From Chloroflexi bacterium B3_Chlor (GTDB lineage Bacteria > Chloroflexota > Anaerolineae > UBA7937 > B3-Chlor), in contig NJBK01000012.1 of the NCBI GenBank assembly GCA_005223035.1, positions 815 through 64,814 on the forward strand: 64,000 nt of DNA. The letters are read 5' to 3'. Position 1 is the stretch's first letter; each line of letters starts with the position of its first letter. The position numbers were made by a program, and so were the translations under genes. The notes below the pieces were generated by a model. It was given only the letters and a program-made list of their open reading frames with translations, was not told the DNA's origin and did no database searches. Of this stretch, positions 1-54,933 are shown one piece after another.

Positions 1-353
1 CTCTCCGTGGCCTCATCCGGGTCTTCCGTCACCCAGGAAACCTGTTCCCTGATGTTGGCCATCTGGAAGTTGAAAGCGTTCAGCCCTGCTTCCTCACATG
101 CTCGCCGAAAGGTGAGTTCGTGCATCAGGGGAGAGCAAGAGGCCACCACCACCCTGTTCAGTCCCAGCTCCTCGATCTCTTGCTTCAACAGGTCTTGACC
201 GGGATCCGAACACATATACTGATAGGTCCTGGCGCTCACCGCCCCAGGGAGTCCGGCGGCGTATTCTGCGAGTGCTTCCACATCCACTTTGTCCGCGATG
301 TTGGTCCCGCAATGACAAACGAAAACCCCTATCCTTCTTGGTCTGTTAGTCAT
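1..353 (-). CDS. hdrA: HdrA-like flavoprotein, N-terminal part only (gene runs off the left window edge); second hdrA paralog
   Basis: Absent from the ORF track because it is open-ended. Reverse complement from ATG 353..351 reads MTNRPRRIGVFVCHCGTNIADKVDVEALAEYAAGLPGAVSARTYQYMCSDPGQDLLKQEIEELGLNRVVVASCSPLMHELTFRRACEEAGLNAFNFQMANIREQVSWVTEDPDEA. About three quarters of these residues match the N-terminus of the complete hdrA at 1780..3747 by eye. Confidence 0.75.
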   Translation of the reverse strand, partial: MTNRPRRIGVFVCHCGTNIADKVDVEALAEYAAGLPGAVSARTYQYMCSDPGQDLLKQEIEELGLNRVVVASCSPLMHELTFRRACEEAGLNAFNFQMANIREQVSWVTEDPDEATE

Positions 354-373
354 GAGTTCCCATCTCCAGAATA

Positions 374-1570
374 TCAACTCTCGACGTTGCACATGGATTC
401 CAGCACCAGTTCGCTTATGTCCACGGCCCTCATCCTGATCTTGGCTTGGCGGGCGCCAGTAAGCAGCGTGCGCTTGCACTGCTGGCAGGCTGAAACAACC
501 GCCGCAGCCCCCGTCTCCTGAGCCTGCTCCATCCGTAGCACACCAACCTGGGCCGTCACCTCCCGGTCTGAGATCTCAACGTCGCCTCCGCCACCACAGC
601 ACATCGCGTCCTGACCATAGCTAGCCATCTCCCTGAACTCTAGCTCCGGAATGTTGTTCACGATGGCCCGCGGAGCATCGTACACCCCGCTCTTGCGACC
701 CAGGTCACAGGGATCGTGGTAGGTCACTACTCTATCCACCGGACCCAGCTGGATCCTATCTTCCTCTATTAGCCGCAAAAGATACTCGGTGGCGTGCAGG
801 ATCTCCAACTCCTGAGGCAACTCCACGAACTGAGGATACACATGCGTCCAGGTATAGTAGCAGGAGGGGCAGGTGGTCACCAGCTTTGTCGAACCCAGTT
901 CTTTCACGCGTTCCACATTGTGGGTCGCCAACTCCCAAACCAGCTCCTTCATCCCGCCGCCATACAGAGGATACCCGCAGCACCACTCCTGTCCCCCCAT
1001 AGTGGTGAAACCAACATGGGCAACCTCAAGGATCTGCACCAACGCCTGAGGTATGGTATAGGCCTGAGGGTAGAAGGCGGACACACATCCCACGAAGTAG
1101 AGAACTTCGGCCCCCTTCTTGGCCTCGATGTCCTCCGGCATGTGTTCCAGGTTCTCGGCCCAGATCAGCCGTGTCTCATTGTCGTCCCCGGAAATGTTGT
1201 ACTTTGTCGTCACCGTCTCCCGCAGCATACCGATACCATCGGGGATTTTCAGTCCCTCCTTCACCGCATACTGCTTCAGCATTAGCATCGTCTCGGTGAG
1301 GTCAATGCCCCTTGGACAGCGCACAGTGCAGGCCTTGCAGGTGGTACACAGCCAGAAGGTAAGGCTATTCACCACTTCGTCTTTCAGACCCAACTGGACC
1401 AGCTTCCACAACTGCCGCGGCGTATAGTCCATGGCATAAGCCGTGGGGCAGGAAGCCGAACAAGTGCCGCACTGGATGCACGCGCGCAGCACGTCCAGAT
1501 CCGGCGTGATCTCCGCCCCAAACTCGAAGTCTGGTGCCCGGGTCGTGAAATCCAGAATGTCTGTGCCCAT
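374..1570 (-). CDS. HdrD/DsrK-like Fe-S oxidoreductase (fused HdrC-type ferredoxin plus HdrB-type double CCG domain)
   Basis: Track ORF 374..1579. It has two ferredoxin motifs (CIQCGTCSASCP, CTTCKACTVRCP) and then two CCG domains (..WCCGYP..TTCPSCYY.. and ..MCCGGGGD..SACQQCKR..). Start moved to ATG 1570 behind GAGGGTGAGGG; the track start is GTG. Confidence 0.8.
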   Translation of the reverse strand: MGTDILDFTTRAPDFEFGAEITPDLDVLRACIQCGTCSASCPTAYAMDYTPRQLWKLVQLGLKDEVVNSLTFWLCTTCKACTVRCPRGIDLTETMLMLKQYAVKEGLKIPDGIGMLRETVTTKYNISGDDNETRLIWAENLEHMPEDIEAKKGAEVLYFVGCVSAFYPQAYTIPQALVQILEVAHVGFTTMGGQEWCCGYPLYGGGMKELVWELATHNVERVKELGSTKLVTTCPSCYYTWTHVYPQFVELPQELEILHATEYLLRLIEEDRIQLGPVDRVVTYHDPCDLGRKSGVYDAPRAIVNNIPELEFREMASYGQDAMCCGGGGDVEISDREVTAQVGVLRMEQAQETGAAAVVSACQQCKRTLLTGARQAKIRMRAVDISELVLESMCNVES

Positions 1571-1779
1571 AGCCCTCACCCTCTCAACACCTGCCCTGTC
1601 TGCGGCAACTCTCGAACCGACACTGTGAACTCGTCAACAAGTGGGCGAAACTCCACCCAACCACAGCCGAGGTATGACCTCGGCATTGTGTGAGCAACTG
1701 ATAGACTTGGTGCTCGCAAGATTGGCGTCGCGGTAGCTACAACGAGTACACGCACAGAGAACGAGGTACGGTGCATGTG

Positions 1780-3747
1780 TCAAGCTACCTCAACTAGCCG
1801 CAGAGCTCCCCGCATCTCTGCCACTAACTGCTCATCCGTGAAATGCAGCAGTGTGATCGCTCTGGAAAGGCAGTGCCCGACACAGGTTCCGCACCCCTTG
1901 CAGGCGGTCTCCTCCACTTGTGCGTGCCCTTGCACTAATGCGATGGCACTGTACGGGCAAGCCATCACACACTCACCACAGCCGGAGCAGCGTTCGACGT
2001 TCACTTGGGCGATAGAAGGCTCCAAAGCCACCCTACCCTTGTCCATCATGCCCAGAGCTACCACGGCCGCCGCCCCCGCCTGAGCCACGGTATCGGGTAT
2101 GTCTTTGGGCCCCTGACAAGCTCCGGCAATGAAAACACCATCGGAAGCAGTCTCCACCGGGGCGAGCTTCGGGTGTTTCTCCAGGAAGAAGCCGTCCGCG
2201 CTGCGGCTGAGGCCAAATGTATGCGCAACCTCCACCGCATCACGCCGTGGCTCCAGGCCTGTGCTCAGGATAACCATGTCCACAGGAATCCGGCGTAGCT
2301 GACCCAGCAACGTATCCTCGCATTTGACGATCAGCTTCCCCTCTTCCTCAGGTCCCTCGACGACATCGGTCACCTCTGCACCCTTGCCCCGGATGAAGAT
2401 GACCCCCTCTTTCAGCAACCGCTTGTAGAACTCCTCATACCCCTTGCCGAAGCTGCGCATGTCGATGTACAGTTCGTAGATCTGGGCGTCGGTGACCTCC
2501 TTCACCAAGTGTGCGAACTTCAGAGACCACATACAACAGACTCGTGAGCAGTAGACATTATACCTCTCGTCCCGGCTGCCAATGCAGTGCAGGATAGCCA
2601 CCCTCTCCGGCTCACGGCCATCTTTCAAGAGCACTTTTCCGCCGGTGGGCCCGGCGGCGTTGATCATCCGCTCGAACTCGAGGCTGGTCAGGACGTTGTC
2701 TAGCCTGTCATAGCCGTACTCCGGCGCCCGGATAGGATCGAATAGATCGAACCCGGTAGCGACGATGATGGTCCCCACATCAAGCTCGACGACCTCGTCC
2801 TCCTGCTCGAAGTCAACGGCGCCTCTTGGGCAGAGTTTCTGGCAAGCACCGCACTTCCCCTTCTGGAACCAGATGCAGTTCTCGGTGTCTATCACCGGGA
2901 CTCTGGGCACTGCCTGAGCGAAAGGCATGTAGATGGCTTTGCGGGTGCCGATCCCGGCGTCAAACTCACTCAGTATGTTCTTGGCGGGACACTTCTCCTG
3001 GCACAGACCGCAGCCCGTACACAGATCTTCGTTCACATAACGTGCCCTCTTTCGGACCTTCACCTTGAAGTTGCCAACGTAGCCCGAAACCTCCTCCACC
3101 TCACCATAGCTCAGGATCTCGATGTTTTCGTGCTGTCCCACGGACACCATCTTCGGCGTCAGTATTCAAGCCGAACAGTCCAAGGTGGGGAAGGTCTTGT
3201 GCAGCTGGGCCATGTAGCCACCGATGCTGGGCTCCCTCTCTACCAGGTATACCTGCTTGCCCGCATCGGCGATGCGGAGGGCGGCTTCGATGCCGGCGAT
3301 GCCTCCCCCTACTATCAGAGCGGCAGGTTGAACAGGAACCTCCTTGACGGCCAAAGCCTCATGATGGGCCGCCCTGTACACCGCGGCGGCCACCGCCCGT
3401 TTCGCCCCCTGGGTGGCCTCGTCGGGGTCCTCGGTCACCCAGGAGACGTGCTCTCGGATGTTGGCCATCTGGAAGAAGAAGGGATTCAGCCCGGCATCCT
3501 CACAGGCACGTCGGAAGGTGGTCTCGTGCATGAGAGGGGTGCAGGAAGCCACCACCACCCGGTTCAATCCCAGCTCCTTGATGTCCTCCTTGATCAACTC
3601 CTGGCCCGGATCGGAGCACATGTATGCGTAGTCGCGCGCTACCGCTACCCCCGGCAGTCCAGTTGCGTACTCCGCGACCGCCTCCACGTCCACTTTGTCC
3701 GCTATGTTGGTCCCACACTGGCAGACGTAGACACCTATCTTCTCCAC
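1780..3747 (-). CDS. hdrA: Heterodisulfide reductase subunit A, long bifurcating type, probable selenoprotein (655 aa, Sec at codon 194)
   Basis: Track ORFs 3166..3747 and 1780..3150 lie in one frame and are joined by TGA 3166..3168. Motifs present: the HdrA N-terminal domain (IGVYVCQCGTNIA..YMCSDPGQ), FAD GxGxxG (LIVGGGIAGIEAAL), and ferredoxin motifs CTGCGLCQEKCP, CGACQKLCP, CSGCGECVMACP, CKGCGTCVGHC. GTG start 3747 lies 8 nt after AGGGGGG. Confidence 0.85.
3120..3168 (-). other. In-frame UGA (3166..3168) read as selenocysteine, plus candidate SECIS hairpins immediately downstream
   Basis: The minus strand reads GAC TGT TCG GCT TGA ATA CTG ACG CCG AAG ATG GTG = D C S A U I L T P K M V. Candidate hairpins are GACGCC-GAAGAU-GGUGUC, starting 6 nt after the UGA, and GUGUCC-GUG-GGACA(G)C about 20 nt after it. 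The hairpins were folded by eye only. Confidence 0.65.
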
Positions 3748-3796
3748 ATCAAATACCCCCCTATCTTCGCCACACCAAATGCCTCTTAAGGAGCCC

Positions 3797-4675
3797 TCAT
3801 GTCATGTGAGGAGCCAAAAGGGCTGCAGCCGACACTAACTCCGTCCCCAGGCCAAGTTCCTCCCTGCCCAGCCCCAGGCTGACGCCGAGTAGCTGCGTGA
3901 AAAACAAGACTGGAAGGGAGAAATCGGTCCCAAACCGAGCGTTCACCTGGCCCTGATATGCCTCCACGTTGAGATGACAGAGAGGACAGGCCGTGGCAAG
4001 GCAACTGGCCCCTCTGCGCACCGCGTCGGCCAGCAGGTTGTGCACCAACTTCAGGGCTACTTCTTTCTTGTCGCTCATCATCAAGATGCCCCCACAGCAC
4101 GATGCTCTTAGAGGATAATCCACGACATCTGCACCGATCCAAGACAATAGGTCACCGAGAGCCGTGGGGAACTCCGCGTCATCAATCCCACTGGGACGGC
4201 TGAAGGCGCAGCCAAGGTAAGGGGCCACTTGCAAGCCCTCCAGAGGATGAGTCACCTTTTCCTGAATGGTCTCTTGACCTAGGTCGTTTACCAGTACCTC
4301 CAGCAGGTGGCGCACCCTCACCGATCCCCGGTACTCAAGATCAATTACCGCCAATGCCTCACCTACCCTCTCCCTCAGCTCAGCGTCCTCGGCGAGCCGT
4401 CGGTTGGTCTTGTCCATGATGCCGAAGCACCCGTTGCAGATGGTCACCAGATCGCACCCTGGGCTGTGTCTCTCGGCCAATCCCAAGTTTCGCGCATTGA
4501 GGGCGAAAGTGGAGAGACTCCGCAGCGAGTACGAGGGGCTCGTCCCGCAGCAATTCCAGTCATCCAGCTCCACCAATTCTAGACCTAGAGCCCCGGCGAC
4601 GGCCCAGGTGGAGAGATTGTAGGCTTTTGTACTCACCTCCTGAGAGCAACCGGGATAATAGGTGTACGCCATCAT
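3797..4675 (-). CDS. hdrB: Heterodisulfide reductase subunit B-like (two CCG domains)
   Basis: MMAYTYYPGC.. at the N-terminus, with CCG domain 1 (..WNCCGTS..ICNGC..) and domain 2 (..ASCCGGI..ACPLCHLN..). The start overlaps the hdrC stop (ATGATG / TGA). Confidence 0.85.
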   Translation of the reverse strand: MMAYTYYPGCSQEVSTKAYNLSTWAVAGALGLELVELDDWNCCGTSPSYSLRSLSTFALNARNLGLAERHSPGCDLVTICNGCFGIMDKTNRRLAEDAELRERVGEALAVIDLEYRGSVRVRHLLEVLVNDLGQETIQEKVTHPLEGLQVAPYLGCAFSRPSGIDDAEFPTALGDLLSWIGADVVDYPLRASCCGGILMMSDKKEVALKLVHNLLADAVRRGASCLATACPLCHLNVEAYQGQVNARFGTDFSLPVLFFTQLLGVSLGLGREELGLGTELVSAAALLAPHMT

Positions 4676-5244
4676 GCCTCCCCTTTCTCCTCGATGTACT
4701 CAAGCATCCTTGCCAAGTTCCGGCGTCCCTTGATCCTGCGCGGCAAGAGAGGAAACCGCCCACGCAACAGCATCTTCAGCCCAAACGGTGCCAGCTTGAT
4801 GAGTCCCAGAGGATTGAGCGTGCTCAAGAAATAGCGTATCATCAGTTCCGTCTCCGCGCTTCGTCCGTAGCGGTCGACGGTATTGACGAAAGCCTGATAT
4901 AGGGCCGGGCTCCCTGGAGGGTGGAGACCCCGCTCTACGGCCATCCGCTTGAGAAGGTACATGAAGTCGGTGAACTGGATTCCGGCTGGACAGCGAACCG
5001 TACAGTAGTAGCAAGAGGCACACAGCCATGGTGTATTGCTGCGCAGCACCCTCTCCAGTTGGTCAGCCCGCAGGGCAGCGATAATCTTGCGAGGAGTGTA
5101 ATCCATGGCATAGGCGGTGGGGCACGAAGCGGAGCACGTGCCGCATTGAATACATTCAAGCAGCTCCTTGCGGTGCCGGATAGCCTCTTCACCAAACCCC
5201 AAGTCCGATTCTCGTACGACCGAGTCCGCAACTTCTGTAGCCAT
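4672..5244 (-). CDS. hdrC: Heterodisulfide reductase subunit C-like (2x[4Fe-4S])
   Basis: CIQCGTCSASCP and CASCYYCTVRCP; 190 aa; ATG start. Confidence 0.85.
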   Translation of the reverse strand: MATEVADSVVRESDLGFGEEAIRHRKELLECIQCGTCSASCPTAYAMDYTPRKIIAALRADQLERVLRSNTPWLCASCYYCTVRCPAGIQFTDFMYLLKRMAVERGLHPPGSPALYQAFVNTVDRYGRSAETELMIRYFLSTLNPLGLIKLAPFGLKMLLRGRFPLLPRRIKGRRNLARMLEYIEEKGEA

Positions 5245-5250
5245 AAGTAC

Positions 5251-5658
5251 TTACCCTCCTAGCTCCTGGCCCGCTTGAGCTCGTAGCAAGATCTCTACCC
5301 ACTTCTCAGGGACGAGTTGCACCGCATCTAGCCCATGGATGGCTCTCAACTCGTTTATCCCCTTTCCGATAGGCAAAGCATAACCAGATTCTAGAACTCT
5401 CCTGAGATTAGCCTCATGTGCTACGGGAGGGTCTTCCTCCCGTCTCTTCTCCACCATAATGGCATGAATGTCCACCCCTTGGGGACAGACTTCCTGACAC
5501 CGCCAGCACGAGGAACAGAGCCAACTAGAGTAGTTATCCTCTCCAAGAAGGAAAGAGGTTATGGAATGAGCACCCAGCCTCTCTACGATGCACACTTCAC
5601 GGCACAGGCCACACTGGGTGCAATCCTCTAGTAGCGAATCCAGGCCTCCAACCGTCAC
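5251..5658 (-). CDS. hdrC: Second HdrC-like ferredoxin subunit (hdrC2)
   Basis: Track ORF 5251..5835 overlaps hdrB2 by about 180 nt. The conserved part starts near GTG 5658, which forms a GTGA overlap with the hdrB2 stop. Motifs: CTQCGLCREVC and CSSCWRCQEVCP. Confidence 0.7.
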   Translation of the reverse strand: MTVGGLDSLLEDCTQCGLCREVCIVERLGAHSITSFLLGEDNYSSWLCSSCWRCQEVCPQGVDIHAIMVEKRREEDPPVAHEANLRRVLESGYALPIGKGINELRAIHGLDAVQLVPEKWVEILLRAQAGQELGG

Positions 5659-6497
5659 GGCGAGCTCCCCAGAAGCTTCCCTGCCATCACGGGTCCGACA
5701 CCCAGTTCCGCTGGATCGATACCCATAGCCAAACCCACTAGCTGCGGCAGGGTCAACACCGGCATCTTGGATTCCGCACGACCCTCGTTCATTAGGCCCT
5801 GAAATCGTTCCAACAATAACTGACAGTTGCCACAAGCGTCTACTAATACGTCCGCCCCTGCAGCAGAGCTCAGCTTCCGTTGACCAGCCTCAAGACCTAG
5901 CTGCTCATTCACCAGATACAGAGTCGAACCGCAGCAATCGTACTCCGCGTCGTAGGGTACAACCTCCGCCCCGGTCAACTCCACGATGGAGCGCATGGCC
6001 TGGGGCTGCAGAGGATCGTCGAAACCAAGGACTTCGTGAGGTCGAAAGGCCTGGCAGGGGTGCGTCAGCGCGACCTTCAGCGACAACTCCACCCTCACTT
6101 TGTCCCTCATCCCCTCCAGTTGCTCGCTGAGGACCTGAACCAAGTGTATGACCCTCGTCCCTCCCTCGAAGTGCAATCCAATCTCATCCAGTCTTTCATT
6201 CACCACAAGGCGGAGGGAGGGATCCCGCAACGCTACCTCAGCCCGCAGCAGAGTGTTAGTGCAGTTGCCACAAATGGTCAAGACGGGGAACCCCATCCTC
6301 TCGGCGAGACTGAGATTGTAGGCCGCAAGGTAGAGCCATTTATCGGTGAAGGACTCCAACGGAGCTCCACAGCAAGCGGCGTGGGCGATACTTGCCGCAG
6401 AGATGTAAAGCTCCCTCAGCACCCTCTTGGCGGCCTTCTCGTACTGAGGCATGCGCTGGAGAACCAGACAGCCTGGGAAGAGCGCCATCCTCGCCAC
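5655..6497 (-). CDS. hdrB: Second HdrB-like subunit (hdrB2, two CCG domains)
   Basis: ..LFPGC.., ..AACCGAP..ICGNC.. and ..YDCCGST..ACGNCQLL... The start is either GTG 6497 or ATG 6488. Confidence 0.8.
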   Translation of the reverse strand: MARMALFPGCLVLQRMPQYEKAAKRVLRELYISAASIAHAACCGAPLESFTDKWLYLAAYNLSLAERMGFPVLTICGNCTNTLLRAEVALRDPSLRLVVNERLDEIGLHFEGGTRVIHLVQVLSEQLEGMRDKVRVELSLKVALTHPCQAFRPHEVLGFDDPLQPQAMRSIVELTGAEVVPYDAEYDCCGSTLYLVNEQLGLEAGQRKLSSAAGADVLVDACGNCQLLLERFQGLMNEGRAESKMPVLTLPQLVGLAMGIDPAELGVGPVMAGKLLGSSP

Positions 6498-6500
6498 AGT

Positions 6501-7565
6501 TCAACCAACCACTACCTTGGCGAAATCCGTCGGCTCGACCCCCGGAGATTCTATGCGATGCTTCTCATAGAACTCACTGATCGTCTCCTCGACCTCAGCT
6601 TCTTTCCTGCCGACCAGCGCCTGTGAAAGATCGGTCAACTTGTCAGCCGGGTAGAAGAAGAAGTCACCCGAAAGCGCAAGGGAGGTGATGGCGCCATCTG
6701 CGATCTCCACATCGCCCCGGATGAGGCCCCCTGGAGCCTTGTGAACCAGGTGTTTCACATCCACGCCAGACGCGATTCTGACCGTCCGTCCTTCCATCGG
6801 TCTGCCTATCTTGTACAGCCACTCCTCGTTCAAGAACTTGGGGGACAATCTAGACACCTCATTCCGCAACTCCTCGTCCACCTCTGCCCGGGGCAAAGGT
6901 CCCAAGAGCTTCTCGAAGTTCCGGGCCAGACTGGCATTGAGTGACTCCCTCGTCGGCTTCTCCGCCAACTCCCGTTTGATCGTGGTCAGGTTTTCCCTCA
7001 TGCTCTCGTAGACCTTGTCGCGGAACTTCTCGTCAGGGACCCTCAACACCCGGCTCATCATCTCGTAGTTGAAGTCAACGATCAGGTTGCCCACGAGGAT
7101 CAGGTAGTCGCCTATTTCCGCGGCACCATTGCCAGATATCTTTCGCTTCTTTGCAACAATATCGTTGACCGGTTTGTATTCCGCCGGGATGCCTATCTCC
7201 CGATAGGTTTCGATGGGGGGCTCCAAGAACTTGCGATAGAAGGTGGTCTTGTCGGATGGGGCCAAGGGGTTCTCCTTGTGTATAATCAACTGGTAGAACA
7301 GTTGGTCGCCATCCAGATAGACTCCCCCTCCTCCCACCTCCCGTCGGAACACGGGGATGTCATTGGCTCGGCAAAACTCCACGTCCACTTCCTTCTCCAG
7401 GTCCTGATGATAGCCGATGCAGACGTAGGGAGAGGCAGGAGAGAGCAGCACCAACGCCTCCCTGTGCAGACGAGGCAAAGCGTGGTAGGTCAGTTGTGAA
7501 TCGGGCCAGGGAACGCTCCCCAGGTCATAGAGATGCACTGGCGCCTCCAGCCGAATTATGACCAA
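6501..7565 (-). CDS. lplA: Lipoate-protein ligase (LplA-type catalytic domain plus C-terminal accessory domain)
   Basis: 354 aa with BPL/LplA-like blocks (..DIPVFRREVGGGGVYLDGDQLFY.., ..KISGNGAAEIGDYLI..). It sits directly upstream of the hdr genes. The TTG start is uncertain. Confidence 0.7.
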   Translation of the reverse strand: MVIIRLEAPVHLYDLGSVPWPDSQLTYHALPRLHREALVLLSPASPYVCIGYHQDLEKEVDVEFCRANDIPVFRREVGGGGVYLDGDQLFYQLIIHKENPLAPSDKTTFYRKFLEPPIETYREIGIPAEYKPVNDIVAKKRKISGNGAAEIGDYLILVGNLIVDFNYEMMSRVLRVPDEKFRDKVYESMRENLTTIKRELAEKPTRESLNASLARNFEKLLGPLPRAEVDEELRNEVSRLSPKFLNEEWLYKIGRPMEGRTVRIASGVDVKHLVHKAPGGLIRGDVEIADGAITSLALSGDFFFYPADKLTDLSQALVGRKEAEVEETISEFYEKHRIESPGVEPTDFAKVVVG

Positions 7566-7612
7566 GTCTATCTAATTATACCAGAATGAGCGGTGAATCT
7601 CAACAGAAGCGA

Positions 7613-8563
7613 TCACGCGACGAGCACGTCCAACATCATGGCCAGAAAAAGGACGAAGAGGTAGGGGCTGGAGAGCTTGAACATCACCCAGGCCTTCTCG
7701 CGCGAGGGATTCCGCGCCAAAATGACATTGCTGACGGTTATGACCAACCCAAGAACCAGGGCTGTGCTCAGATAGATGAGACCAAACCCTCCCACGAAGT
7801 AGATGGCTAAGGAACAAAGGTACATCAACACGACGGTAGCCATCGTGCAGCGAGTGGTCTTCTCCAGGGAGAGCACGGCGGGCAACATCGGGACGCTAGC
7901 TTTCTTGTAGTCCTCTGTATGGAATATGGCCAGGTTCCAGATATGATTGGGTATCCACAGCACCACAACTGCCGCGATGAGCAGCGCCTCGACGTCCAAG
8001 CTGTTCTTGACGACGGCCCAGCCGAAGAGAACAGGGATCCCACCGCTAAGTCCTCCTAGAATGATGTTCAGGGGGCTTCTCCTCTTCATCAACAAGCTGT
8101 AAACCAGGACATTGTCAACGAAGCCCAGAAGGCCCCATAGGAAGGCCAACGCATTGAGCGTCCATGCCAAGGCTAGTGAAACCACCGTCAAAAGAAGGCC
8201 CCAGTAGAGAGCCCTCTCGGGGGGATGGATCCTGCCACTCGGTATGGGACGCCGCCTGGTCCGCTCCATCACGCGGTCCAAGTCACGGTCGATATAGCAG
8301 GTTATGGTATTCGCTCCTGCGCAGCCCAGAGTGACGGCAACAAGGGCAGTCATGAAAAGGCTAGCGGGGAGATTCCATCCGTCGGCAGCGATGGCTATCG
8401 CAGCTAGAGATGTGAAGACCAGGAGAAGGACGGAAGCAGGCTTGGTGACTTCAACGTAGGGCCACAAGCCTCTCAGGGAAGAAACGGACCCTAGGCCGAT
8501 AGGTCGCTGAGTTTGTTCGCCTCCTTCGTATTCGGAATCGTAAGGCTGCACCACGACACCCAA
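7613..8563 (-). CDS. ctaB: UbiA-family prenyltransferase, probable heme O synthase (protoheme IX farnesyltransferase)
   Basis: Polytopic membrane protein. The motif NTITCYIDRDLDRVMERTRRRPIPSG matches my recollection of the CtaB/CyoE signature (YIDRDID..M.RT..RP). The start (TTG 8563) is uncertain. Confidence 0.65.
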   Translation of the reverse strand: MGVVVQPYDSEYEGGEQTQRPIGLGSVSSLRGLWPYVEVTKPASVLLLVFTSLAAIAIAADGWNLPASLFMTALVAVTLGCAGANTITCYIDRDLDRVMERTRRRPIPSGRIHPPERALYWGLLLTVVSLALAWTLNALAFLWGLLGFVDNVLVYSLLMKRRSPLNIILGGLSGGIPVLFGWAVVKNSLDVEALLIAAVVVLWIPNHIWNLAIFHTEDYKKASVPMLPAVLSLEKTTRCTMATVVLMYLCSLAIYFVGGFGLIYLSTALVLGLVITVSNVILARNPSREKAWVMFKLSSPYLFVLFLAMMLDVLVA

Positions 8564-8587
8564 CGTTCTTGACCCATCGTCAAGGGG

Positions 8588-9802
8588 TCAGTCTTCCATA
8601 ACCCTGGCTACCAGCTCCACTATGTCCAGTACCCTCATTCTCGCCTTTTCTTGGCGCGCCGCGGTCATCAAGGTCCGTTTGCATTGCTGACAGGCGGAAA
8701 CAAGAACTTGGGCCTCCGTGGCCAGCGCCTGTCGCAGCCGCCGAGCCGCCACCGCCCCTACCAATTCCTCATCGCACATCGCAACGTCACCCCCACCGCC
8801 GCAACAGAGGGCTTGCCGCCGGTTCTCCTCCATCTCAGCGAACGAGATACCGGGAATACTCCGTATCACACTCCTTGGAGCATCATATATGCCGCTGTTC
8901 CTTCCCAAGTCACAGGGGTCATGATACGTGACCAGCCGGTCGAACTCGTTCAGTTTAATGCGCCCCTCACCGATTAGTTCCAGCAGGAGCTCGCTCAGAT
9001 GCTGTACTTCGAAGCCCAGGGGTTCTCCCATGATTCTCGGGTACTCATGTAGCCACGTGTGATAGCAGGAGGGACACCCCGCCACTAGTCTGTGAGCCCC
9101 GATGCCTCTTATCGCCGCCACGCTATGCTCCACCAACTCCTTGATTGCACTTTCCATGCCAGCGATAATGAGCGGATATCCGCAACACCACTCTTCACCC
9201 CCCAGCGTGGTGAAATCCAGACCAGCTCTCTCCATCACCGTCACCGTCGCTTGGGGAATGCCATAGGTCTGAGGATAGAAGGCGGGTGTGCAGCCAACGA
9301 AGTAGACTATGTCCGCCTCCCGCTTGCCCGCTAGGCCCTCGGGTACCCGTTCCAGGTTCTCGCTCCAGATAAGGCGGTCCTGATTGTCGTCTCCAGAGAT
9401 GTTGTATCTCGTAGTGACCATCTCACGCAGAGTGTCGAAAGTCTCAGGGTAATGACCCAGATCGACCAGATGCTCCCGCATGGCAATCCACAGAGGACGA
9501 GTGTCTATTTTGACCGGGCATACCACCCTACAGCGTCCACAGAGGGTGCAATCGTAGACCCCGTCGGAGAATTCCTCCAAGGACTCATCAGCCGGGAACC
9601 TAGACCCAAACAGCCTGGCGCGGAACCCATACTGAGCCCCTATGAAAGACCTCATGCGGCGTATCTTGTCCGCCGGTTGCAGAGGCTCCTCACTTTTCTC
9701 CGCATACGTGGGGCACCACTTGACACACTCGCCGCAGCGAGTGCACGCGTCAAGCTCCATCAGCTGCTTGAATGAGTAGTGAGAGAGGTCAAACTTGCCC
9801 AT
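8588..9802 (-). CDS. HdrD/DsrK-like Fe-S oxidoreductase (paralog of 374..1570)
   Basis: CTRCGECVKWCP and CTLCGRCRVVCP, then CCG domains (..WCCGYP..GCPSCYH.. and ..LCCGGGGD..SACQQCKR..). The ATG start overlaps the stop of the upstream membrane subunit. Confidence 0.8.
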   Translation of the reverse strand: MGKFDLSHYSFKQLMELDACTRCGECVKWCPTYAEKSEEPLQPADKIRRMRSFIGAQYGFRARLFGSRFPADESLEEFSDGVYDCTLCGRCRVVCPVKIDTRPLWIAMREHLVDLGHYPETFDTLREMVTTRYNISGDDNQDRLIWSENLERVPEGLAGKREADIVYFVGCTPAFYPQTYGIPQATVTVMERAGLDFTTLGGEEWCCGYPLIIAGMESAIKELVEHSVAAIRGIGAHRLVAGCPSCYHTWLHEYPRIMGEPLGFEVQHLSELLLELIGEGRIKLNEFDRLVTYHDPCDLGRNSGIYDAPRSVIRSIPGISFAEMEENRRQALCCGGGGDVAMCDEELVGAVAARRLRQALATEAQVLVSACQQCKRTLMTAARQEKARMRVLDIVELVARVMED

Positions 9803-10643
9803 GAGTTACTCCAGCAGGCACCGAGGGGGTCTCCTCCCTCGGTAGGGAATTGACAGTGGCGATGATAGCGCCAGCCACAGCATGGAAGAACTTGCTGAAG
9901 GGGATGTACGCCACCACCACGGAGGAGAATATGGCATGAAACAGAAACAGCCAGTCATGGAGATCGGCCCACGGCAGAGGTGCAGTCCTCACCAGCGAGG
10001 CCACTGGGTAGCCGATGAAAGCATAGGCCGCGGTGGCAGGCAACTCCTCAAACTCGAAGCTCAGGCGGCATATCTCCGCCAAGTAGCCTGAGATCATGAT
10101 GACCACCAGTAACACGATGATCTGCATGTCCACCATTCGCGTGCGCATGTCCAGTTCCCTGATCACGTAACGGCGGACGATGACAATCATCAACCCCACC
10201 ATGACCACCAACCCCCCGAACTCGTTCAGGAAGGCCGTGATCGCATGATCTTTGTTGGCGAAAATGGAGGTGAAGAGATTATCCATCTTGAAGATGGGTA
10301 TCATGATGTCAACGCTTATGAAAGAGAAACCGCTCAGGATAGTCAGCAACACAATACCGCCGAACACGCAGAAATGGGCAGTCCAGCGCAACTTGTGCGC
10401 CCTGAACAAGGTAGGGTGAATCGCACCGTCCCAAATCAACACCCGTAGTAGAGCTCCCAACCTGGCGCTAAAGATCGTAGCCAGAGTGCTTCTAATCAGC
10501 AGGAACAGCTTCCTACGAGCGCTGATGTCACCTCTGCCGTTGACGGTCCCCTGAAGCCAAATCGTCAGGGTGAACACCGTCCCTGCGACGAAAACGATCA
10601 TAGCCGGTATGTGGAAGAGCCAGAATACGAGCATTATGTCCAT
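9789..10643 (-). CDS. Polytopic membrane protein, probable heme-b/quinone-interacting partner of the HdrD-like protein (DsrM/HdrE/NarI-like)
   Basis: 284 aa with about 6-7 hydrophobic helices carrying conserved-looking His residues (FWLFHIP, WTAHFCVF, LFLFHAIF, KFFHAVAG). It is translationally coupled to the HdrD-like gene. The family assignment rests on context. Confidence 0.5.
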   Translation of the reverse strand: MDIMLVFWLFHIPAMIVFVAGTVFTLTIWLQGTVNGRGDISARRKLFLLIRSTLATIFSARLGALLRVLIWDGAIHPTLFRAHKLRWTAHFCVFGGIVLLTILSGFSFISVDIMIPIFKMDNLFTSIFANKDHAITAFLNEFGGLVVMVGLMIVIVRRYVIRELDMRTRMVDMQIIVLLVVIMISGYLAEICRLSFEFEELPATAAYAFIGYPVASLVRTAPLPWADLHDWLFLFHAIFSSVVVAYIPFSKFFHAVAGAIIATVNSLPREETPSVPAGVTHGQV

Positions 10644-10922
10644 TCGTCAAACCCTATCTAGGACGGCGTCTGAAACGCACGGCCCTTTCCCAACCAGCTA
10701 CAGATCGTCGCCTTCCCAGACTGCATAGAGACAGCACGAACCTCTCGGTCGTAGATCTTGAAACATTCGGGGGAGGCCAACGGTCAATGCCTGCTGCCGC
10801 GCGCCGCCCTGCTCATCGGCCTCCCTTCGCGATACAGCAAGTCCCAGAACCAGGAGCATCCACCCGTCGAGAGGTGTGAGTCTCAGCCTTACGTTTCTTG
10901 CTGGAGAACTCTGGGCGAGATC

Positions 10923-11360
10923 CTAGGCCCCTTCGAGGATATCCTTGTACTTTTCTATCTCTGACTCTACGAACGACTGGAACTCGGCGTCGGAGGCCTT
11001 GAGCAGGTTATCAAGCTCGCCTAGATCGGAGGCCTCGATCTTGGCTAGCCAACCTTCGCCGAAGGGGTCCTCGTTGATCGGCGCCACATCCCATTCCAGT
11101 TCCTCGTTGGTCTCGGTGATGGCTCCGCTGACCATGGCCGCGATGCGACCGACCCACTTGCCGGACTCCATGGACATGAAGGTCTTGCCTTGCTCCACTG
11201 TGCGTCCAGTGCGTGGTACCTCAACGTATACAATCTCCTTCGATATCTTCTGGGCGAATTCGGTGACTCCCTGCGTCACCGCGTTACCCTCCACCAGAGC
11301 CCAGGCATGATTCTTGTCGTAGTACAGTTCATCCGGGAAGTTGTATTCGCCGATATTCAT
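10923..11360 (-). CDS. GcvH-like lipoate-binding protein (LbpA-like); no gcvT/gcvP nearby
   Basis: ..YDKNHAWALVEGNAVTQGVTEFAQ..VYVEVP..MESGKWVGRIAAMVSGAITETNEEL..DPFGEGWL.. = H-protein fold, with the lipoyl-Lys in ESGKW. Start set to ATG 11360 (MNIGEY) behind GGAGAGGAGG. The track start at 11387 would lie at the predicted transcription start. Confidence 0.8.
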   Translation of the reverse strand: MNIGEYNFPDELYYDKNHAWALVEGNAVTQGVTEFAQKISKEIVYVEVPRTGRTVEQGKTFMSMESGKWVGRIAAMVSGAITETNEELEWDVAPINEDPFGEGWLAKIEASDLGELDNLLKASDAEFQSFVESEIEKYKDILEGA

Positions 11361-11393
11361 GTCCTCGACACCTCCTCTCCAACTCATCGGGGA

Positions 11394-11402
11394 ATTCTAT
11401 CA
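11394..11402 (-). promoter_or_regulatory. Extended -10 promoter element TGATAGAAT upstream of the gcvH-like gene
   Basis: The minus strand reads ctgTGATAGAATtccccg, about 35 nt upstream of ATG 11360. The same 9-mer precedes the ArsB/NhaD-type transporter gene. Confidence 0.45.
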
Positions 11403-11616
11403 CAGGAGCGCCCGATCATCAAAGCCACAAACCCTTCCTGGCCGCTATCATACCACCCCAGGGTCAAAGTCAGGTCTGAATCTGGTCCTAATCTGGTCAT
11501 AGGGTCAATCGGAATGTGTCCGGACCTCCCTCAGACCAGGAAGGACCATGACTACCTCCCTCGGTATCTCGTCTGCGTTCCAGCTGATGCGCCAGGATCC
11601 AGCCTCAGGTGCAAGA

Positions 11617-13709: not shown

Positions 13710-14522
13710 TTAGCAATGCAGCAGAGTTCCTTCCTCGACCCGGCTATCCAGCAACGCCTTCCTGATCAGCCCCTCTTGCTCACCAGAGATGAAACGTACC
13801 GTGATAGCTGGGTGAGCCTCGATCAACTGGGACATGGTTCGCACTTTGGCCAGCATGCCCCCAGTCACGTCAATGCCATGGGAGCCGGTCAGCATTTTCT
13901 CTACCTCGGCAAACTTGGAGGCAGATATCTTCTTGAGAAGGCGGGCTGCTGGCTCTTTCAAAGGGTCTCCAGTGAATACGCCTTCCACGTGACCGGCCAG
14001 GATGATCCTTCGAGGGGCGAGATGGACGCCAAGATAGGCAAAGATCTGTTCCGTGGATATAATGGCAGTGCCACGCACTCTGTCGAAAGATACATCGCCA
14101 TACACCATTGGCACCAACCCCCGCTTGAGGGCCTCCTTGATCAGGGCCACCTCCAAATGAACCAGTTGCCCATCGTCGCACAGAGCCGAGGCGGAGGGCT
14201 GTATGGGGAGAACCGGTATCCTTTGGGCGAGCAGTAGGTCGGCAACGACCCGGTCTAGCCGGGCGGCCACCACCGCTGTCTCAGCATACCCCCACCAATC
14301 ATCGCTTTCGAGCAGCCCTTCATGGACGCCGTACTTGCTCGCAGGCGCATGGGCGAAGGATCCGCTGCCGTGCCCCAAGAGGAGCTTCAGATCAGGAGCA
14401 TGGTCCAGAGCCTCCCGTATCTCCTGGGCCACACGGCGAATGACCCTTTCCCTGGCCGTCTGCGGGGATCCCTTATCGGTGATCAGGGAACCCCCTAACT
14501 TGAGGTATACCAGTTCGCCCAA
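13710..14522 (-). CDS. Isopentenyl phosphate kinase (amino-acid-kinase fold)
   Basis: LKLGGSLITDK.., ..LLLGHGSGSFAH.., ..IDVTGGM..; 270 aa; clustered with mevalonate kinase. Confidence 0.7.
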   Translation of the reverse strand: MGELVYLKLGGSLITDKGSPQTARERVIRRVAQEIREALDHAPDLKLLLGHGSGSFAHAPASKYGVHEGLLESDDWWGYAETAVVAARLDRVVADLLLAQRIPVLPIQPSASALCDDGQLVHLEVALIKEALKRGLVPMVYGDVSFDRVRGTAIISTEQIFAYLGVHLAPRRIILAGHVEGVFTGDPLKEPAARLLKKISASKFAEVEKMLTGSHGIDVTGGMLAKVRTMSQLIEAHPAITVRFISGEQEGLIRKALLDSRVEEGTLLHC

Positions 14523-15262: not shown

Positions 15263-16285
15263 TCATTGTTCTTCTTCTGGCACTACAGACGACGCCGGAG
15301 AAGGCACAAGATCTTTGCTCGCCTCGACCTCCGCCTGGATCACACCGTCGGCTCCCTCGGCCTCCAAGGCATGCTTCACCTGCTCGCCCGTCTGCGCAGT
15401 CACCAGGGCGATCATGTTTCCGCCGCGACCCGCCCCCGACAGTTTCGCACCCAAGGCTCCGTGTCGCCTAGCCGCCCTCACCAGAGCATCCAGTCGAGAG
15501 GAGGACACCCCCATATCCTGCAGCAGGCGGTGGTTGTCGTCCATCAGACGCCCTACCTGCCCCACCTCTCCCCTCTCGATGGCCCAGCGGGCCTTCACAG
15601 CTATATCGCCCACACCGTCGAACAGGGCTTCATATCTTTCCTTGGATTCCTCCCATGCTCGACGGACTGCGCCAACCACTATCCTCGTGGGGCTCTCTGC
15701 CCCAGTATCCGCAATGACAAGTGACAGGGGTCTTCCTACTGGGAAGGTCTCCAACCTCTCACCGCGGACAAAGTATACCGGCCGTTCATACGCTATCACC
15801 GTATTATCTATCCCGCTAGCCGTGCCGTGATGCAGCTTCTCCACTTCGTACACCAGTCGGGAAACCTCTTCCGCAGTGAGTTTCTTGGAGAAGTGCTCTG
15901 CCACCGCCCTAGTCATTGCTGTAGAGACGGCAGCACCGCTACCTAGGCCTCGCGCAATGGGAATGCTGGACTCCACAGCTATCGTCAGATCCTGCTCCAA
16001 ACTCAAGCCGAGGTAGGTGAGAACATTCACCACCGTGGCTTGCAGAGGGCTTGCCGCTGACTTGCTCTCTCTCTGTCCCACGTGAAAAACGCGGCCCAGA
16101 TCCTTGGCCACGATGACGATCCCCTGCTCTTTCTCACCCTCTTCGACCGTCACTCGAGCCTGAACCTGGGTCACCGGCACCGCTATGGCTGGCCGGCCAT
16201 AAACCACAGCGTGCTCCCCCACGAGAATGATTTTCCCTGGCGCGTGAGCTATGGTCATCAATAGCGTGCCTTTCAGGCCATCCAA
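15263..16285 (-). CDS. mvk: Mevalonate kinase (GHMP kinase)
   Basis: APGKIILVGEHAVVYG, GLGSGAAVS, KLSGAGRGGNMIAL. Confidence 0.85.
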   Translation of the reverse strand: MDGLKGTLLMTIAHAPGKIILVGEHAVVYGRPAIAVPVTQVQARVTVEEGEKEQGIVIVAKDLGRVFHVGQRESKSAASPLQATVVNVLTYLGLSLEQDLTIAVESSIPIARGLGSGAAVSTAMTRAVAEHFSKKLTAEEVSRLVYEVEKLHHGTASGIDNTVIAYERPVYFVRGERLETFPVGRPLSLVIADTGAESPTRIVVGAVRRAWEESKERYEALFDGVGDIAVKARWAIERGEVGQVGRLMDDNHRLLQDMGVSSSRLDALVRAARRHGALGAKLSGAGRGGNMIALVTAQTGEQVKHALEAEGADGVIQAEVEASKDLVPSPASSVVPEEEQ

Positions 16286-36919: not shown

Positions 36920-37076
36920 GCGAAGGTGTAGGAGCTGTGCGCGACGACACTCTTCACCAGATCCAGCTTACCCTGACCTCCACTTCCCGGTATTATATCG
37001 CATCCGCTGCCAATTGACCAACTGAACCATGAATTCCTCAAAAACACCGAGCGATCACCAGTCTAGGGAGGGGAGA

Positions 37077-37835
37077 ATGTCGGTCCTCAAGCTGCAGGGC
37101 GACGTCATCTACGGCCCGATCCACTCCCGACGCTTGGGCCGTTCCCTGGGCATTAACCTGCTGCCCACGATCCACAAACTCTGTACCTTTGATTGCATCT
37201 ACTGCCAATATGGGAGCTCTGACGCCGGGTCTATGCCTGAGGAACACACAGGGTTCCCCTCGCTGGAAACCGTTCTACAAAGCGTAGAGAAGGCTTTGAG
37301 TCAGCAACCGCCTCCAAACTACCTGACCTTCTCGGGCAACGGCGAGCCGACGCTACATCCTCGGTTCCCGGAGATCGTAGTAGAAGTGCGCCGCCTGAGG
37401 GACCGGATGTGCCCTGATGTCAGATTGGCTATTCTCTCCAACTCGTCTCGGATCCACCGTTCTGAGATCAGAGAAGCCGTACAGCAGCTGGATGACCCGA
37501 TCATGAAGTTGGACGCCGGTGATCCTGCGACCTTCGCACAGATTAACCGTCCTGTGCCGGGAGTCACGTTTGAGAAGATAATTGCTGGTCTGGCAGCCAT
37601 GCCTCGAGTCATAATCCAAAGCATGATCGTCGACGGCCCGCTTCAGAACGCGGAGGGTGAGGCCCATGAAGCGTGGCTCAGTACACTAGCTCAACTATCC
37701 CCGGAAAAGGTGCAAGTATACAGCACCGAGCGTCCAGTAGCGCAGACTGAGGTAGAAAGGGTATCCAAGGCAACCCTAGAGGAGCTAGCCCGGAACGCCG
37801 AGAAACGAACAGGCGTCCCGGTGAGGGCATACTAG
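37077..37835 (+). CDS. Radical SAM protein
   Basis: ..YGPIHSRRLGRSLGINLLP..CTFDCIYCQYG.. (CxxxCxxC). Start taken at ATG 37077. Confidence 0.7.
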   Translation: MSVLKLQGDVIYGPIHSRRLGRSLGINLLPTIHKLCTFDCIYCQYGSSDAGSMPEEHTGFPSLETVLQSVEKALSQQPPPNYLTFSGNGEPTLHPRFPEIVVEVRRLRDRMCPDVRLAILSNSSRIHRSEIREAVQQLDDPIMKLDAGDPATFAQINRPVPGVTFEKIIAGLAAMPRVIIQSMIVDGPLQNAEGEAHEAWLSTLAQLSPEKVQVYSTERPVAQTEVERVSKATLEELARNAEKRTGVPVRAY

Positions 37836-52138: not shown

Positions 52139-52236
52139 CGCCTAAGCAACTCCACAACGTAGAAAGACCGGCCCTCGCCCTGGAAACCTCCCGTGGCTCC
52201 TTATCCAATGCGCTCGCGGCCGCAGTGCTCGTTTCC

Positions 52237-53283: not shown

Positions 53284-53368
53284 TTCAACCTTCTTTCGCG
53301 GCACACGTCCTCGGCCTTGGTGAGGCAAGTGCGCATGACTGTTCCCTCCGCACGCTTGGCAATAGGAA

Positions 53369-53713: not shown

Positions 53714-53871
53714 GACCCTGTCCTCCAACTTTGTTTTCCCGGCGATGGTGCAGCTTGCGGGGCTCTGTCCAGCGAGGGTAACCTCTGGCTTCTAGCTGTT
53801 CCCGGTGTCCGACAGCGTCCGGTGCGGAACAAGCGTCAAATTGGGACGCCAGCCGCCTAGACCGTTATCAC

Positions 53872-54552: not shown

Positions 54553-54633
54553 ATGATACGTGTGGCGACGCGAATCCCAGCGAAGCAGAATCGTGTGTTC
54601 GTCTAGTACATAGACTATCTATATACCTAGGAT

Positions 54634-54662
54634 ACTATACTACATTTTCAAGAAGTTGTCAA
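54634..54662 (-). promoter_or_regulatory. Sigma70-type promoter TTGACA-17 nt-TATAGT
   Basis: The minus strand reads gacTTGACAacttcttgaaaatgtagTATAGTatc, in an AT-rich patch upstream of 53872..54552. Confidence 0.55.
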
Positions 54663-54857: not shown

Positions 54858-54933
54858 GTTTGCGGTCGACGGGCGAAGATGCTATACTTGTCCAATTGTT
54901 GCTCGACCTAGCGACACATGAGGAGTGCATACT

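Follow-up and report, generated by a model that had tools for sequence, protein, structure and literature searches.

A locus at the start of a 64,000-nucleotide stretch of DNA from Chloroflexi bacterium B3_Chlor (contig NJBK01000012.1; the whole stretch is called the window below) combines genes for heterodisulfide reductase (Hdr)-type proteins with genes for a small GcvH-like protein and a lipoate-protein ligase. The source of the DNA is a metagenome-assembled genome (MAG) of the Anaerolineae (Chloroflexota). The GcvH-like protein belongs to a distinct, noncanonical subfamily, named GKW here, its linkage to Hdr-type genes is conserved across phyla, and the Hdr-type proteins encoded beside it carry intact catalytic motifs. 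We propose that the locus encodes a lipoyl-protein-dependent Hdr network and not a single complex. The chances seem evenly balanced that the lipoyl arm of the GcvH-like carrier would serve as a dithiol/disulfide that is shuttled between soluble HdrABC-type modules and a membrane HdrDE-like module.

Genes of the HdrABC and HdrD types are common among bacteria and archaea in which neither coenzyme M nor coenzyme B is made. To our knowledge, the question of which thiol/disulfide partner Hdr uses outside of the methanogens has been answered only for DsrC in sulfate reducers and, in part, for LbpA in sulfur oxidizers. A broader claim, which we hold more tentatively and rate somewhat below an even chance, is that many non-methanogenic anaerobes use lipoate on the GKW carrier as the physiological "heterodisulfide" of their Hdr-type enzymes, where it would operate in an HdrABC/HdrDE-like loop. 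These anaerobes may include Anaerolineae, syntrophic Thermodesulfobacteriota, Spirochaetota, Syntrophomonas, and some archaea. If true, lipoate would gain a new role, and an HdrABC/HdrDE-like redox loop would run on a sixth kind of lipoate-dependent system. The coupling of formate, ferredoxin, and quinone in the abundant Anaerolineae of sediments and digesters, and in syntrophs, would be explained, and a systematic misannotation as "glycine cleavage system protein H" would be corrected. The locus also offers a clonable candidate that can be tested in vitro, namely a small lipoyl protein with a recognizable signature and its own ligase, encoded beside the reductases.

Pfam and NCBIfam scans define twelve co-directional genes on the minus strand at positions 1-11402, which are separated by short gaps or overlap. 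The same scans bear out the gene identities and the 5'-to-3' order given in the initial annotation. That annotation had counted thirteen genes, a number reached only when HdrA is taken as two open reading frames (ORFs), and had assigned 209 nucleotides (nt) to a spacer that measures 200 nt. The genes and sites are as follows (aa, amino acids).

11394..11422, minus strand: sigma-70-like promoter candidate 5' of the GcvH-like gene (TTGATG-17-TAGAAT with TG; a consensus match)
10923..11360, minus strand: GcvH-like lipoyl carrier, GKW subfamily, 145 aa (PF01597, 3.5e-32)
11157..11159, minus strand: AAG codon of the predicted lipoyl-lysine K68 (tip of a beta-hairpin, strands 60-66 and 69-74)
9789..10643, minus strand: NarI/DsrM/HdrE-type membrane cytochrome b, 284 aa (PF02665, 38.5 bits; cut-off 22.9)
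8588..9802, minus strand: HdrD-like protein 1 (HdrD1), 404 aa (two cubane 4Fe-4S and two complete CCG motifs)
7613..8563, minus strand: heme O synthase (CtaB/CyoE; passes NF003349 and TIGR01473)
7575..7603, minus strand: strong sigma-70-like promoter candidate 5' of lpl (TTGAGA-17-TATAAT, 11 of 12; a consensus match)
6501..7565, minus strand: lipoate-protein ligase, fused LplA+LplB (LplA-B_cat plus LplB C-terminus)
5655..6497, minus strand: HdrB2 (two complete CCG motifs)
5251..5658, minus strand: HdrC2, about 135 aa (two CxxCxxCxxxC motifs; GTG start)
4672..5244, minus strand: HdrC1, 190 aa (two 4Fe-4S motifs)
3797..4675, minus strand: HdrB1 (two complete CCG motifs)
1780..3747, minus strand: HdrA, methanogen-type, predicted selenoprotein, 655 aa (end-to-end alignment with solved HdrA)
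3166..3168, minus strand: in-frame TGA of HdrA, predicted to be read as selenocysteine (Sec; aligned to a Cys of TLDCSMCIL)
1580..1779, minus strand: spacer between hdrA and hdrD2, 200 nt
374..1579, minus strand: HdrD-like protein 2 (HdrD2), HdrC+HdrB fusion type (two 4Fe-4S and two complete CCG motifs)
3..353, minus strand: second hdrA (hdrA2), first 117 codons, cut by the edge of the window

The NarI-like gene (dsrM) and hdrD1 overlap by 14 nt, the lpl stop codon lies 3 nt ahead of the hdrB2 start, the GTG start of hdrC2 overlaps the hdrB2 stop codon (GTGA), and hdrC1 and hdrB1 overlap by 4 nt. Such overlapping or abutting reading frames argue for one or two transcripts, and the arrangement suggests translational coupling at several junctions. 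The spacer at 1580-1779 contains no terminator-like site and no Rfam match, and Rfam and tRNA scans of the window gave no match. Within positions 1-11402 there is no space for additional genes. No dsrE/tusA, lipA/LipS, gcvT/gcvP, lpd, or etfAB gene was found among the window ORFs scanned, small ORFs outside the locus having been covered incompletely, which agrees with the initial statement that dsrE/tusA and lipoyl-synthase genes are missing. A radical-SAM gene at 37029-37835 was considered as a candidate lipoyl synthase and was rejected when no LipA or LipS model matched it.

The GcvH-like protein differs from standard H-proteins in features of its own sequence family. The ORF extends to 11387, and the ATG at 11360 is preceded by a GGAGAGGAGG ribosome-binding site; a start at this position agrees with the 145-aa gene call in a relative of 94% identity (locus L081). 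An AlphaFold2 model of the carrier (pLDDT 83) superposes on H-proteins with a TM-score of about 0.8 and includes a C-terminal helical extension. Lysine 68 occupies the turn that joins strands 60-66 and 69-74; the H-protein fold and the hairpin lysine are both kept. This lysine is invariant in 46 orthologs from related loci and in 37 subfamily representatives, and the 46 orthologs have in common an FMSmESGKWVGR stretch and the C-terminal extension. The carrier has no cysteine, and the same is true of 39 of the 47 single-domain orthologs.

A search of 1.84 billion representative sequences with the carrier returned 7362 relatives, only eight of them at E <= 1e-30, and the top ranks are all of the GKW type. 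G-K-W-x-G around the lipoyl-lysine is invariant in the 37 GKW representatives, whereas V-K-A-V-S gives the commonest residue at each position in canonical GcvH (n = 93). Four residues past the lysine (K+4), the GKW proteins have R/K in 25 of 37 cases, compared with D/E in 73 of the 93 canonical sequences. Similarly, the Glu of the HEW motif is outside the five commonest residues in the GKW set and is present in 57/93 canonical proteins. From the pea H-protein structures, we take the K+4 acidic residue and the HEW Glu to be those that hold the aminomethyl-lipoyl arm; if this is right, the loss of both argues against a role in glycine cleavage. When genomes were scanned with a canonical Chloroflexota GcvH (from Herpetosiphon), the best 80 loci came from many phyla and none of these 80 came from the GKW-carrying MAGs. 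By its sequence, the carrier is neither LbpA nor a standard H-protein, and it represents a distinct, noncanonical GcvH subfamily.

Some members of the wider family depart from this pattern. Locus L046 encodes, at 5141-9451 on the plus strand, a 1436-aa fusion in which three tandem GCV_H domains without the lipoyl-lysine are followed by FAD_binding_4/FAD-oxidase_C, two 4Fe-4S motifs, and two CCG domains, and a protein of the same architecture (P0241, 1391 aa) is the top match of the representative search. Elsewhere, a GCV_H copy without the lysine (L185:1262-1627) lies beside a GKW copy, and divergent carriers in L256 (Syntrophomonas) and L277 (Geoarchaeota) read QSGKWAGK and ESGRK.

The main result concerns the conserved linkage of the carrier gene to Hdr genes. 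The full gene order is kept, at 66-89% identity in a tblastn map, in L002, L005, L006, L008, L010, L012, L014, and L015. An arrangement that is syntenic in at least eight related MAGs and recurs in part in hundreds of loci lies far outside what chance would give. The hdrC1-B1-A block is missing from L001, L003, L009, L011, and the 94%-identical L081, and in these loci hdrB2-hdrC2 is followed directly by hdrD2-hdrA2. The single complex envisaged in the initial annotation does not fit this pattern, since a locus that can lose the block even in so close a relative is modular.

To gauge linkage from the carrier alone, a genome collection was scanned with a degenerate DNA pattern for MESGKWVGR and with no reference to neighboring genes. 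At least 120 stretches were recovered, and the 118 listed loci with a confirmed carrier gene are the basis of the counts given here. The stretches listed are mostly from Chloroflexota, with 26 from Thermodesulfobacteriota/"Deltaproteobacteria" (Syntrophaceae, Syntrophorhabdus), three from Spirochaetota, and two from Nitrososphaerota. An Hdr-type gene or Lpl lies no more than 3.5 kb from the carrier in 91/118 loci, and 18 of the remaining 27 end within 1.5 kb of the carrier gene. A census of neighbors in the same 8-kb block, made without greedy filtering and with families named only after Pfam or homology checks, gave HdrD-like proteins in 80 loci, Lpl in 36, HdrA in 25, an AMP-binding ligase in 23, rpsT in 22, HdrB in 12, and cytochrome c in 11. 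The commonest partner adjoining the GcvH-like gene is the membrane HdrD/NarI-like pair and not two HdrBC pairs. A link to formate comes from other recurrent neighbors, namely MvhD, FdhA, and a gene that by its sequence resembles formate/nitrite transporters. The GcvT and GcvP families are not among the recurrent neighbors in the 118 + 80 loci sampled, nor are sulfur transferases, lpd, or etfAB among the conserved neighbors of the 198 related loci.

The reverse test, starting from HdrD1, found the carrier within 5 kb in 18 of 25 orthologs, always with the NarI-like gene ahead, and three more orthologs have the carrier about 6 kb upstream on the same contig. A GcvH-HdrD-Lpl neighborhood is present in L256, from the Bacillota syntroph Syntrophomonas, and GcvH lies beside NarI-HdrD in L277, from Geoarchaeota. 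Synteny, which the initial annotation had proposed to survey, thus proves to be kept in relatives and across phyla with order and orientation rearranged. Because linkage is conserved at this distance and the carrier subfamily is noncanonical, we regard the ligase and the GcvH-like gene as functionally tied to the Hdr genes, as had been supposed.

The most serious rival to a lipoyl carrier for Hdr enzymes is a true H-protein whose glycine cleavage or synthase partners are encoded elsewhere, with Hdr modules that replace or supplement the L-protein. Dihydrolipoyl-H would then be reoxidized to the quinone, or lipoyl-H would be reduced with formate for reductive glycine synthesis. This explanation draws on the retained fold and lysine, on the recurrent presence of formate dehydrogenase and the formate/nitrite-transporter-like gene, and on the lack of an lpd gene among the scanned window ORFs. 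The family models point in both directions, in that the carrier scores 125.7 bits on NF002270 (cut-off 117) and only 93.8 bits on the TIGR00527 gcvH equivalog (cut-off 115.85). What makes the glycine explanation unlikely, in our judgment, is the replacement of both arm-holding acidic residues across the GKW subfamily and the fact that gcvT and gcvP never occur among the conserved neighbors of the sampled loci.

HdrB1, HdrB2, HdrD1, and HdrD2 each contain two complete CX31-39CCX32-36CXXC motifs, HdrC1 and HdrC2 each contain two 4Fe-4S motifs, and all HdrB and HdrC cluster ligands are present. With complete motifs in four CCG proteins, the locus encodes four sites that could reduce disulfides, next to a single candidate for the disulfide carrier. 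HdrB1 and HdrB2, which are 36% identical to each other, match methanogen HdrB with 174 and 143 bits, and both score as ordinary HdrB within a comparison set that holds no model or reference specific for the sulfur-oxidizing type (sHdr). A plasmid search with HdrB1 found only two unrelated records, from Picosynechococcus and Ilyobacter.

The membrane pair consists of a NarI-family cytochrome b adjoining a protein with two 4Fe-4S and two CCG motifs, which is the arrangement seen in HdrDE and DsrMK. In the cytochrome, His is conserved at three of the four canonical positions; H90, H236, and H254 are 93-97% conserved in 69 homologs, and H236 and H254 are separated by 18 residues, which we take to be the spacing of the NarI helix V pair. 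Among solved structures, the best match to HdrD1 is mycobacterial EtfD (9ojn, 130 bits), in which TCTG and CPHC take the places of WCCG and CPSC in HdrD1. EtfD is an electron transfer flavoprotein (ETF):menaquinone oxidoreductase whose CCG domains have turned into a shielded electron wire, with C-T instead of CC in the first CCG domain, a His that completes the second cluster, and a linear 3Fe-4S cluster built by a His/Cys pair (PMC13083937).

Several known membrane systems were considered for this pair. EtfD/EMO proper was rejected because the catalytic cysteines are kept and no etfAB is nearby. DsrMK proper was rejected because HdrD1 scores 107.8 bits on the DsrK model NF045796, far under the cut-off of 400, and HdrD1 likewise falls far under the cut-offs of both models as a TmcB or HmcF ortholog. 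As in DsrMK(JOP)-DsrC, a NarI-type cytochrome b is paired with a CCG protein and with a small, protein-borne thiol/disulfide carrier; however, HdrD1 is not a DsrK ortholog, dsrAB and dsrC were not seen, and a lipoyl group would replace the Cys pair/trisulfide. EtfD and EMO (M. smegmatis 9ojn; Syntrophus EMO) have the same cytochrome b plus HdrD-like architecture that links a cytoplasmic donor to menaquinone, but in our locus there are two separate subunits, the catalytic CC pairs are kept without Thr/His substitutions, and etfAB is missing. L006 and L008-L015 have, instead of the 284-aa NarI-like gene, a set of three genes (L008:4705-7744) for a multiheme cytochrome c, a cytochrome b561-like protein, and a cytochrome c3::NarI fusion, which are predicted to form an Hmc/Tmc-like transmembrane conduit feeding HdrD1.

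These affinities invite another explanation, in which the membrane pair carries out no thiol chemistry and conducts electrons as an EtfD/EMO-like wire or a Tmc/Hmc-like conduit would. The GcvH-like protein would then be employed otherwise; it might, for example, relay lipoyl groups to 2-oxoacid dehydrogenases, act as an antioxidant in the manner of streptococcal GcvH-L, or serve as a subunit for docking or regulation. EtfD is, after all, the best solved match of HdrD1, relatives swap in multiheme cytochromes as in Hmc and Tmc, GcvH-Lpl pairs are also found alone, and the fusions of lysine-free GcvH domains to FAD-oxidase-HdrD show that the fold can act without lipoate. We consider this explanation distinctly unlikely. 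The catalytic CC pairs are kept in HdrD1 and the His and Thr of EtfD are absent from it, no etfAB or AhpC/AhpD-type partners occur among the neighbors, and the lipoyl-lysine and its flanks are invariant. The carrier also occurs with HdrD more often than with Lpl (80 versus 36 of the 118 listed loci).

On the soluble side, HdrA residues 3-650 align with methanogen HdrA (8rvu) at 772 bits, and the protein scores 841 bits on the HdrA2 model. The match to sHdrA (6tjr) reaches 162 bits and covers residues 320-567 only, a stretch over the FAD domain. In addition to this domain, HdrA has an N-terminal cluster domain and Fer4 domains at about 236-310 and 580-634. The collinear 772-bit alignment bears out the initial description of a 655-aa, methanogen-like HdrA with an N-terminal domain and ferredoxin inserts, the in-frame TGA agrees with the Sec of that description, and the protein is predicted to be of the full-length bifurcating type. 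Its TGA aligns to the second Cys of TLDCSMCIL, a cluster-binding Cys position in solved HdrA, and is found at the same codon in 33/33 HdrA genes from 80 related loci (L001-L080). The same Cys position is Sec in some methanogen HdrA. A 6-bp hairpin beginning 8 nt 3' of the TGA is weak (z = -0.86) and no more stable than shuffled sequences, and an Rfam scan gave no match to a selenocysteine insertion sequence at this TGA. Since Sec-containing HdrA was already known in Chloroflexi and Deltaproteobacteria, the Sec feature, which is probably real here, is not new.

Several features are shared with the methanogen HdrABC-MvhAGD and Fdh-Hdr complexes (5odc, 8rvu, 7bkb). HdrA is collinear, the cluster ligands of HdrB and HdrC are complete, a soluble reductase is paired with a membrane one (cytochrome b plus HdrD, cf. 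HdrDE), and MvhD and Fdh are present in relatives. The differences are the bacterial host, the lipoyl protein and ligase in the operon, the lack of a hydrogenase, and the lack of any sign of CoM or CoB, for which no dedicated test was made.

The distal genes belong to a system that has been predicted before. HdrD2 shares 47% identity with HdrD1 and, over its N-terminal part, 45% with HdrC1, and the hdrA2 fragment is 80% identical to the HdrA N-terminus. The window itself stops inside hdrA2, and the flank was read from the loci of relatives. There, hdrA2 likewise has the TGA and is followed by genes for FlpD/MvhD, an FdhB-like Fe-S protein, and molybdopterin FdhA (e.g., L008). An HdrBCA-MvhD-FdhBA "Hdr-associated formate dehydrogenase" has been predicted in marine Chloroflexi and Desulfobacula (PMC5736913), and the distal pair can therefore be recognized as the start of such an operon. 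Both have hdrD2 (an HdrCB fusion) and then hdrA2(Sec), to which relatives add mvhD, fdhB-like, and fdhA genes; the published description, unlike the locus here, includes no lipoyl carrier, ligase, or membrane HdrD module. Thus, the duplicated hdrD-hdrA genes of the initial annotation are present but form part of an operon already predicted. Single Anaerolineae MAGs (L241, L224-L275) carry many extra HdrD2-HdrA pairs, in L241 in the order HdrB1-HdrA-HdrD2-HdrA-HdrD2-HdrA, which points to a large expansion of Sec-HdrA modules.

The locus also recalls the sulfur-oxidizing sHdr-LbpA pathway. As in Hyphomicrobium, Aquifex, and Acidithiobacillus, a GcvH-like protein with its own ligase is clustered with two HdrB/HdrC pairs and HdrA. 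The sHdr-LbpA systems combine an sLpl(AB) ligase with LipS1/LipS2 radical-SAM lipoyl synthases; the ligase here is a fused LplA+LplB protein, and no LipS-like gene is nearby. Published type I systems have a syntenic shdrC1-B1-A-H-C2-B2 core, type II systems combine shdrC1B1AHB3, etfAB, and emo in one cluster, and sHdr systems are "always accompanied" by DsrE, TusA, or rhodanese (PMC11094781). In LbpA, a conserved Lys is accompanied by an N-terminal and a C-terminal Cys, both strictly conserved and both absent from GcvH (PMC6067878). In our locus, the order is B2-C2-C1-B1-A with no gene between hdrA and the HdrC/B pairs and no sHdrH, HdrA is the 655-aa bifurcating type with Sec in place of the short sHdrA of about 340-350 aa, and the carrier keeps the Lys without the two Cys of LbpA. 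DsrE/TusA/rhodanese, LipS1/LipS2, and EtfAB are missing, and the hosts are anaerobic fermenters and syntrophs. The sHdr-LbpA hallmarks claimed initially therefore amount to resemblance only, with the LbpA cysteines, sHdrA, sHdrH, and sulfur carriers all absent. Since none of the four defining features tested was found, the locus is neither sHdr type I nor type II by the published definitions (PMC11094781).

A divergent sHdr-LbpA system might still be imagined, in which HdrB-type sites receive sulfane sulfur from the lipoyl protein and electrons pass to quinone. Besides the shared cluster of two HdrBC pairs, GcvH-like protein, and dedicated ligase, the EMO-type membrane module of type II clusters (PMC11094781) is related to HdrD1, itself a relative of EtfD/EMO. 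We nevertheless rate this reading as very improbable, given the preference of HdrA for the methanogen type (772 versus 162 bits), the missing sHdrH and different gene order, the carrier with 0 Cys where LbpA has two that are strictly conserved (PMC6067878), the lack of DsrE/TusA/rhodanese in the locus and among conserved neighbors, the lack of etfAB and LipS1/S2, and the fermentative and syntrophic hosts. Least probable of all is a proximity without function, in this lineage, of housekeeping gcvH and lpl genes to hdr operons unrelated to them, for although housekeeping genes lie upstream (tRNase Z, RtcA, IPK), rpsT is a frequent neighbor of the carrier, and promoter-like sites occur inside the locus, the linkage survives across phyla and through rearranged order and orientation, lpl and hdrB2 are only 3 nt apart, and the GKW carriers are distinct from canonical GcvH.

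A full-text literature search found no paper that links GcvH with HdrD or HdrABC in bacteria, and the HdrD/NarI partnership, the ligase link, and the GKW carrier subfamily were not found described in bacteria. The nearest precedent is a Culexarchaeia Ehe/HdrA2B2C2 cluster that holds GcvH, whose authors speculated that a lipoyl disulfide might serve HdrB (PMC9723716). That case, unlike the present one, is archaeal and confined to a single lineage, with a membrane [NiFe]-hydrogenase and without a ligase or an HdrD/NarI partner. The initial opinion that no such system had been described thus holds for bacteria as far as the search reached, but the idea of a GcvH-HdrB partnership had already been voiced for the Culexarchaeia.

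In the lipoyl-carrier model that we favor, the Lpl(AB) ligase would load lipoate or octanoate onto K68 of the GKW carrier, and the resulting dithiolane/dihydrolipoyl arm would be the thiol/disulfide substrate at CCG-type noncubane-cluster sites. The soluble modules (HdrB1C1 with Sec-HdrA; HdrB2C2; and HdrD2-HdrA2 with the MvhD and formate dehydrogenase seen in relatives) would couple lipoyl disulfide redox to ferredoxin and formate by flavin-based bifurcation or confurcation. The cytochrome b-HdrD1 pair would link the lipoyl couple to the menaquinone pool, and in close relatives the couple may be linked instead to periplasmic multiheme cytochromes. The logic would match that of methanogens, in which HdrABC plus HdrDE work with the heterodisulfide CoM-S-S-CoB, or that of the DsrMK-DsrC pair, except that lipoate bound to a protein would be the carrier. 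From gene content and motifs, we infer that the carrier is lipoylated, that the lipoyl group is a substrate, that HdrA bifurcates electrons, and in which direction the electrons flow.

The lipoyl disulfide/dithiol couple lies at about -290 mV and formate at about -430 mV. Electron transfer from formate to ferredoxin plus lipoyl, and from dihydrolipoyl to menaquinone, is thermodynamically feasible. By the reverse route, quinol would reduce the lipoyl group at the expense of the proton-motive force, and confurcation with ferredoxin would then yield formate. Because the module is carried by syntrophs and fermenters, this route from quinol and ferredoxin to formate would also fit.

Several observations weigh against the lipoyl-carrier model. 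Its support comes throughout from genomic context and motifs. The carrier passes the NCBI GcvH subfamily model, and all pipelines and public sources name it GcvH. About a quarter of the motif-selected loci have no nearby Hdr gene, although most of these are cut near the carrier. The nearest solved relative of HdrD1, as judged by alignment score, is an ETF:menaquinone oxidoreductase and not a disulfide reductase. No lipoyl synthase among the scanned window ORFs is linked to the carrier. The ligase is frequently sited away from it, as in DUEK01, JACIWQ01, JADBJJ01, JBMFKS01, and SOHZ01, where the ligase is alone or with hdrC1B1A and GcvH-NarI-HdrD is on another contig, and in deltaproteobacterial loci an AMP-binding ligase replaces Lpl. 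Finally, the heme O synthase gene in the middle of the operon is unexplained by the model. The enzyme scores 266 bits against a cut-off of 246, its gene lies between hdrD1 and lpl in all close relatives, and the window contains no heme-copper oxidase gene.

The ligase itself has 451 relatives in species-representative genomes, and the best 80 are all from Anaerolineae, Thermoflexia, or other Chloroflexota MAGs. In 23 Thermodesulfobacteriota/Syntrophaceae loci, Lpl gives way to a 525-aa AMP-binding (acyl-CoA-synthetase-like) gene, which accompanies GKW-GcvH/HdrD/NarI or HdrCBA. Examples of this gene are as follows.

L099:7044-8000: AMP-binding gene
L118:2893-4470: AMP-binding gene
L144:4868-6445: AMP-binding gene

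The remainder of the window carries housekeeping genes. Those for tRNase Z, RtcA, and isopentenyl phosphate kinase (IPK) are upstream neighbors of the locus, and the others encode mevalonate kinase, F-type ATP synthase, MreB, enzymes for envelope polysaccharides, ADP-forming acetyl-CoA synthetase, and enolase. On the minus strand at 50905-55449, four ORFs of 226-388 aa (50905-52029, 52237-53403, 53872-54552, and 54760-55449) have no Pfam match at E <= 1e-6, and some of them may be spurious antisense ORFs in GC-rich DNA. IPK, which passes the archaeal IPPK model, and mevalonate kinase are encoded close together on the minus strand (13710-14522 and 15263-16285), and the pair indicates the alternative mevalonate pathway. 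This pathway is usual for Chloroflexota. A 352-aa protein encoded at 62921-63979 on the minus strand has a CAP12/Pycsar-type TIR effector domain (PF10137, 6e-17) and no NCBIfam match, and the domain makes it a possible anti-phage defense gene.

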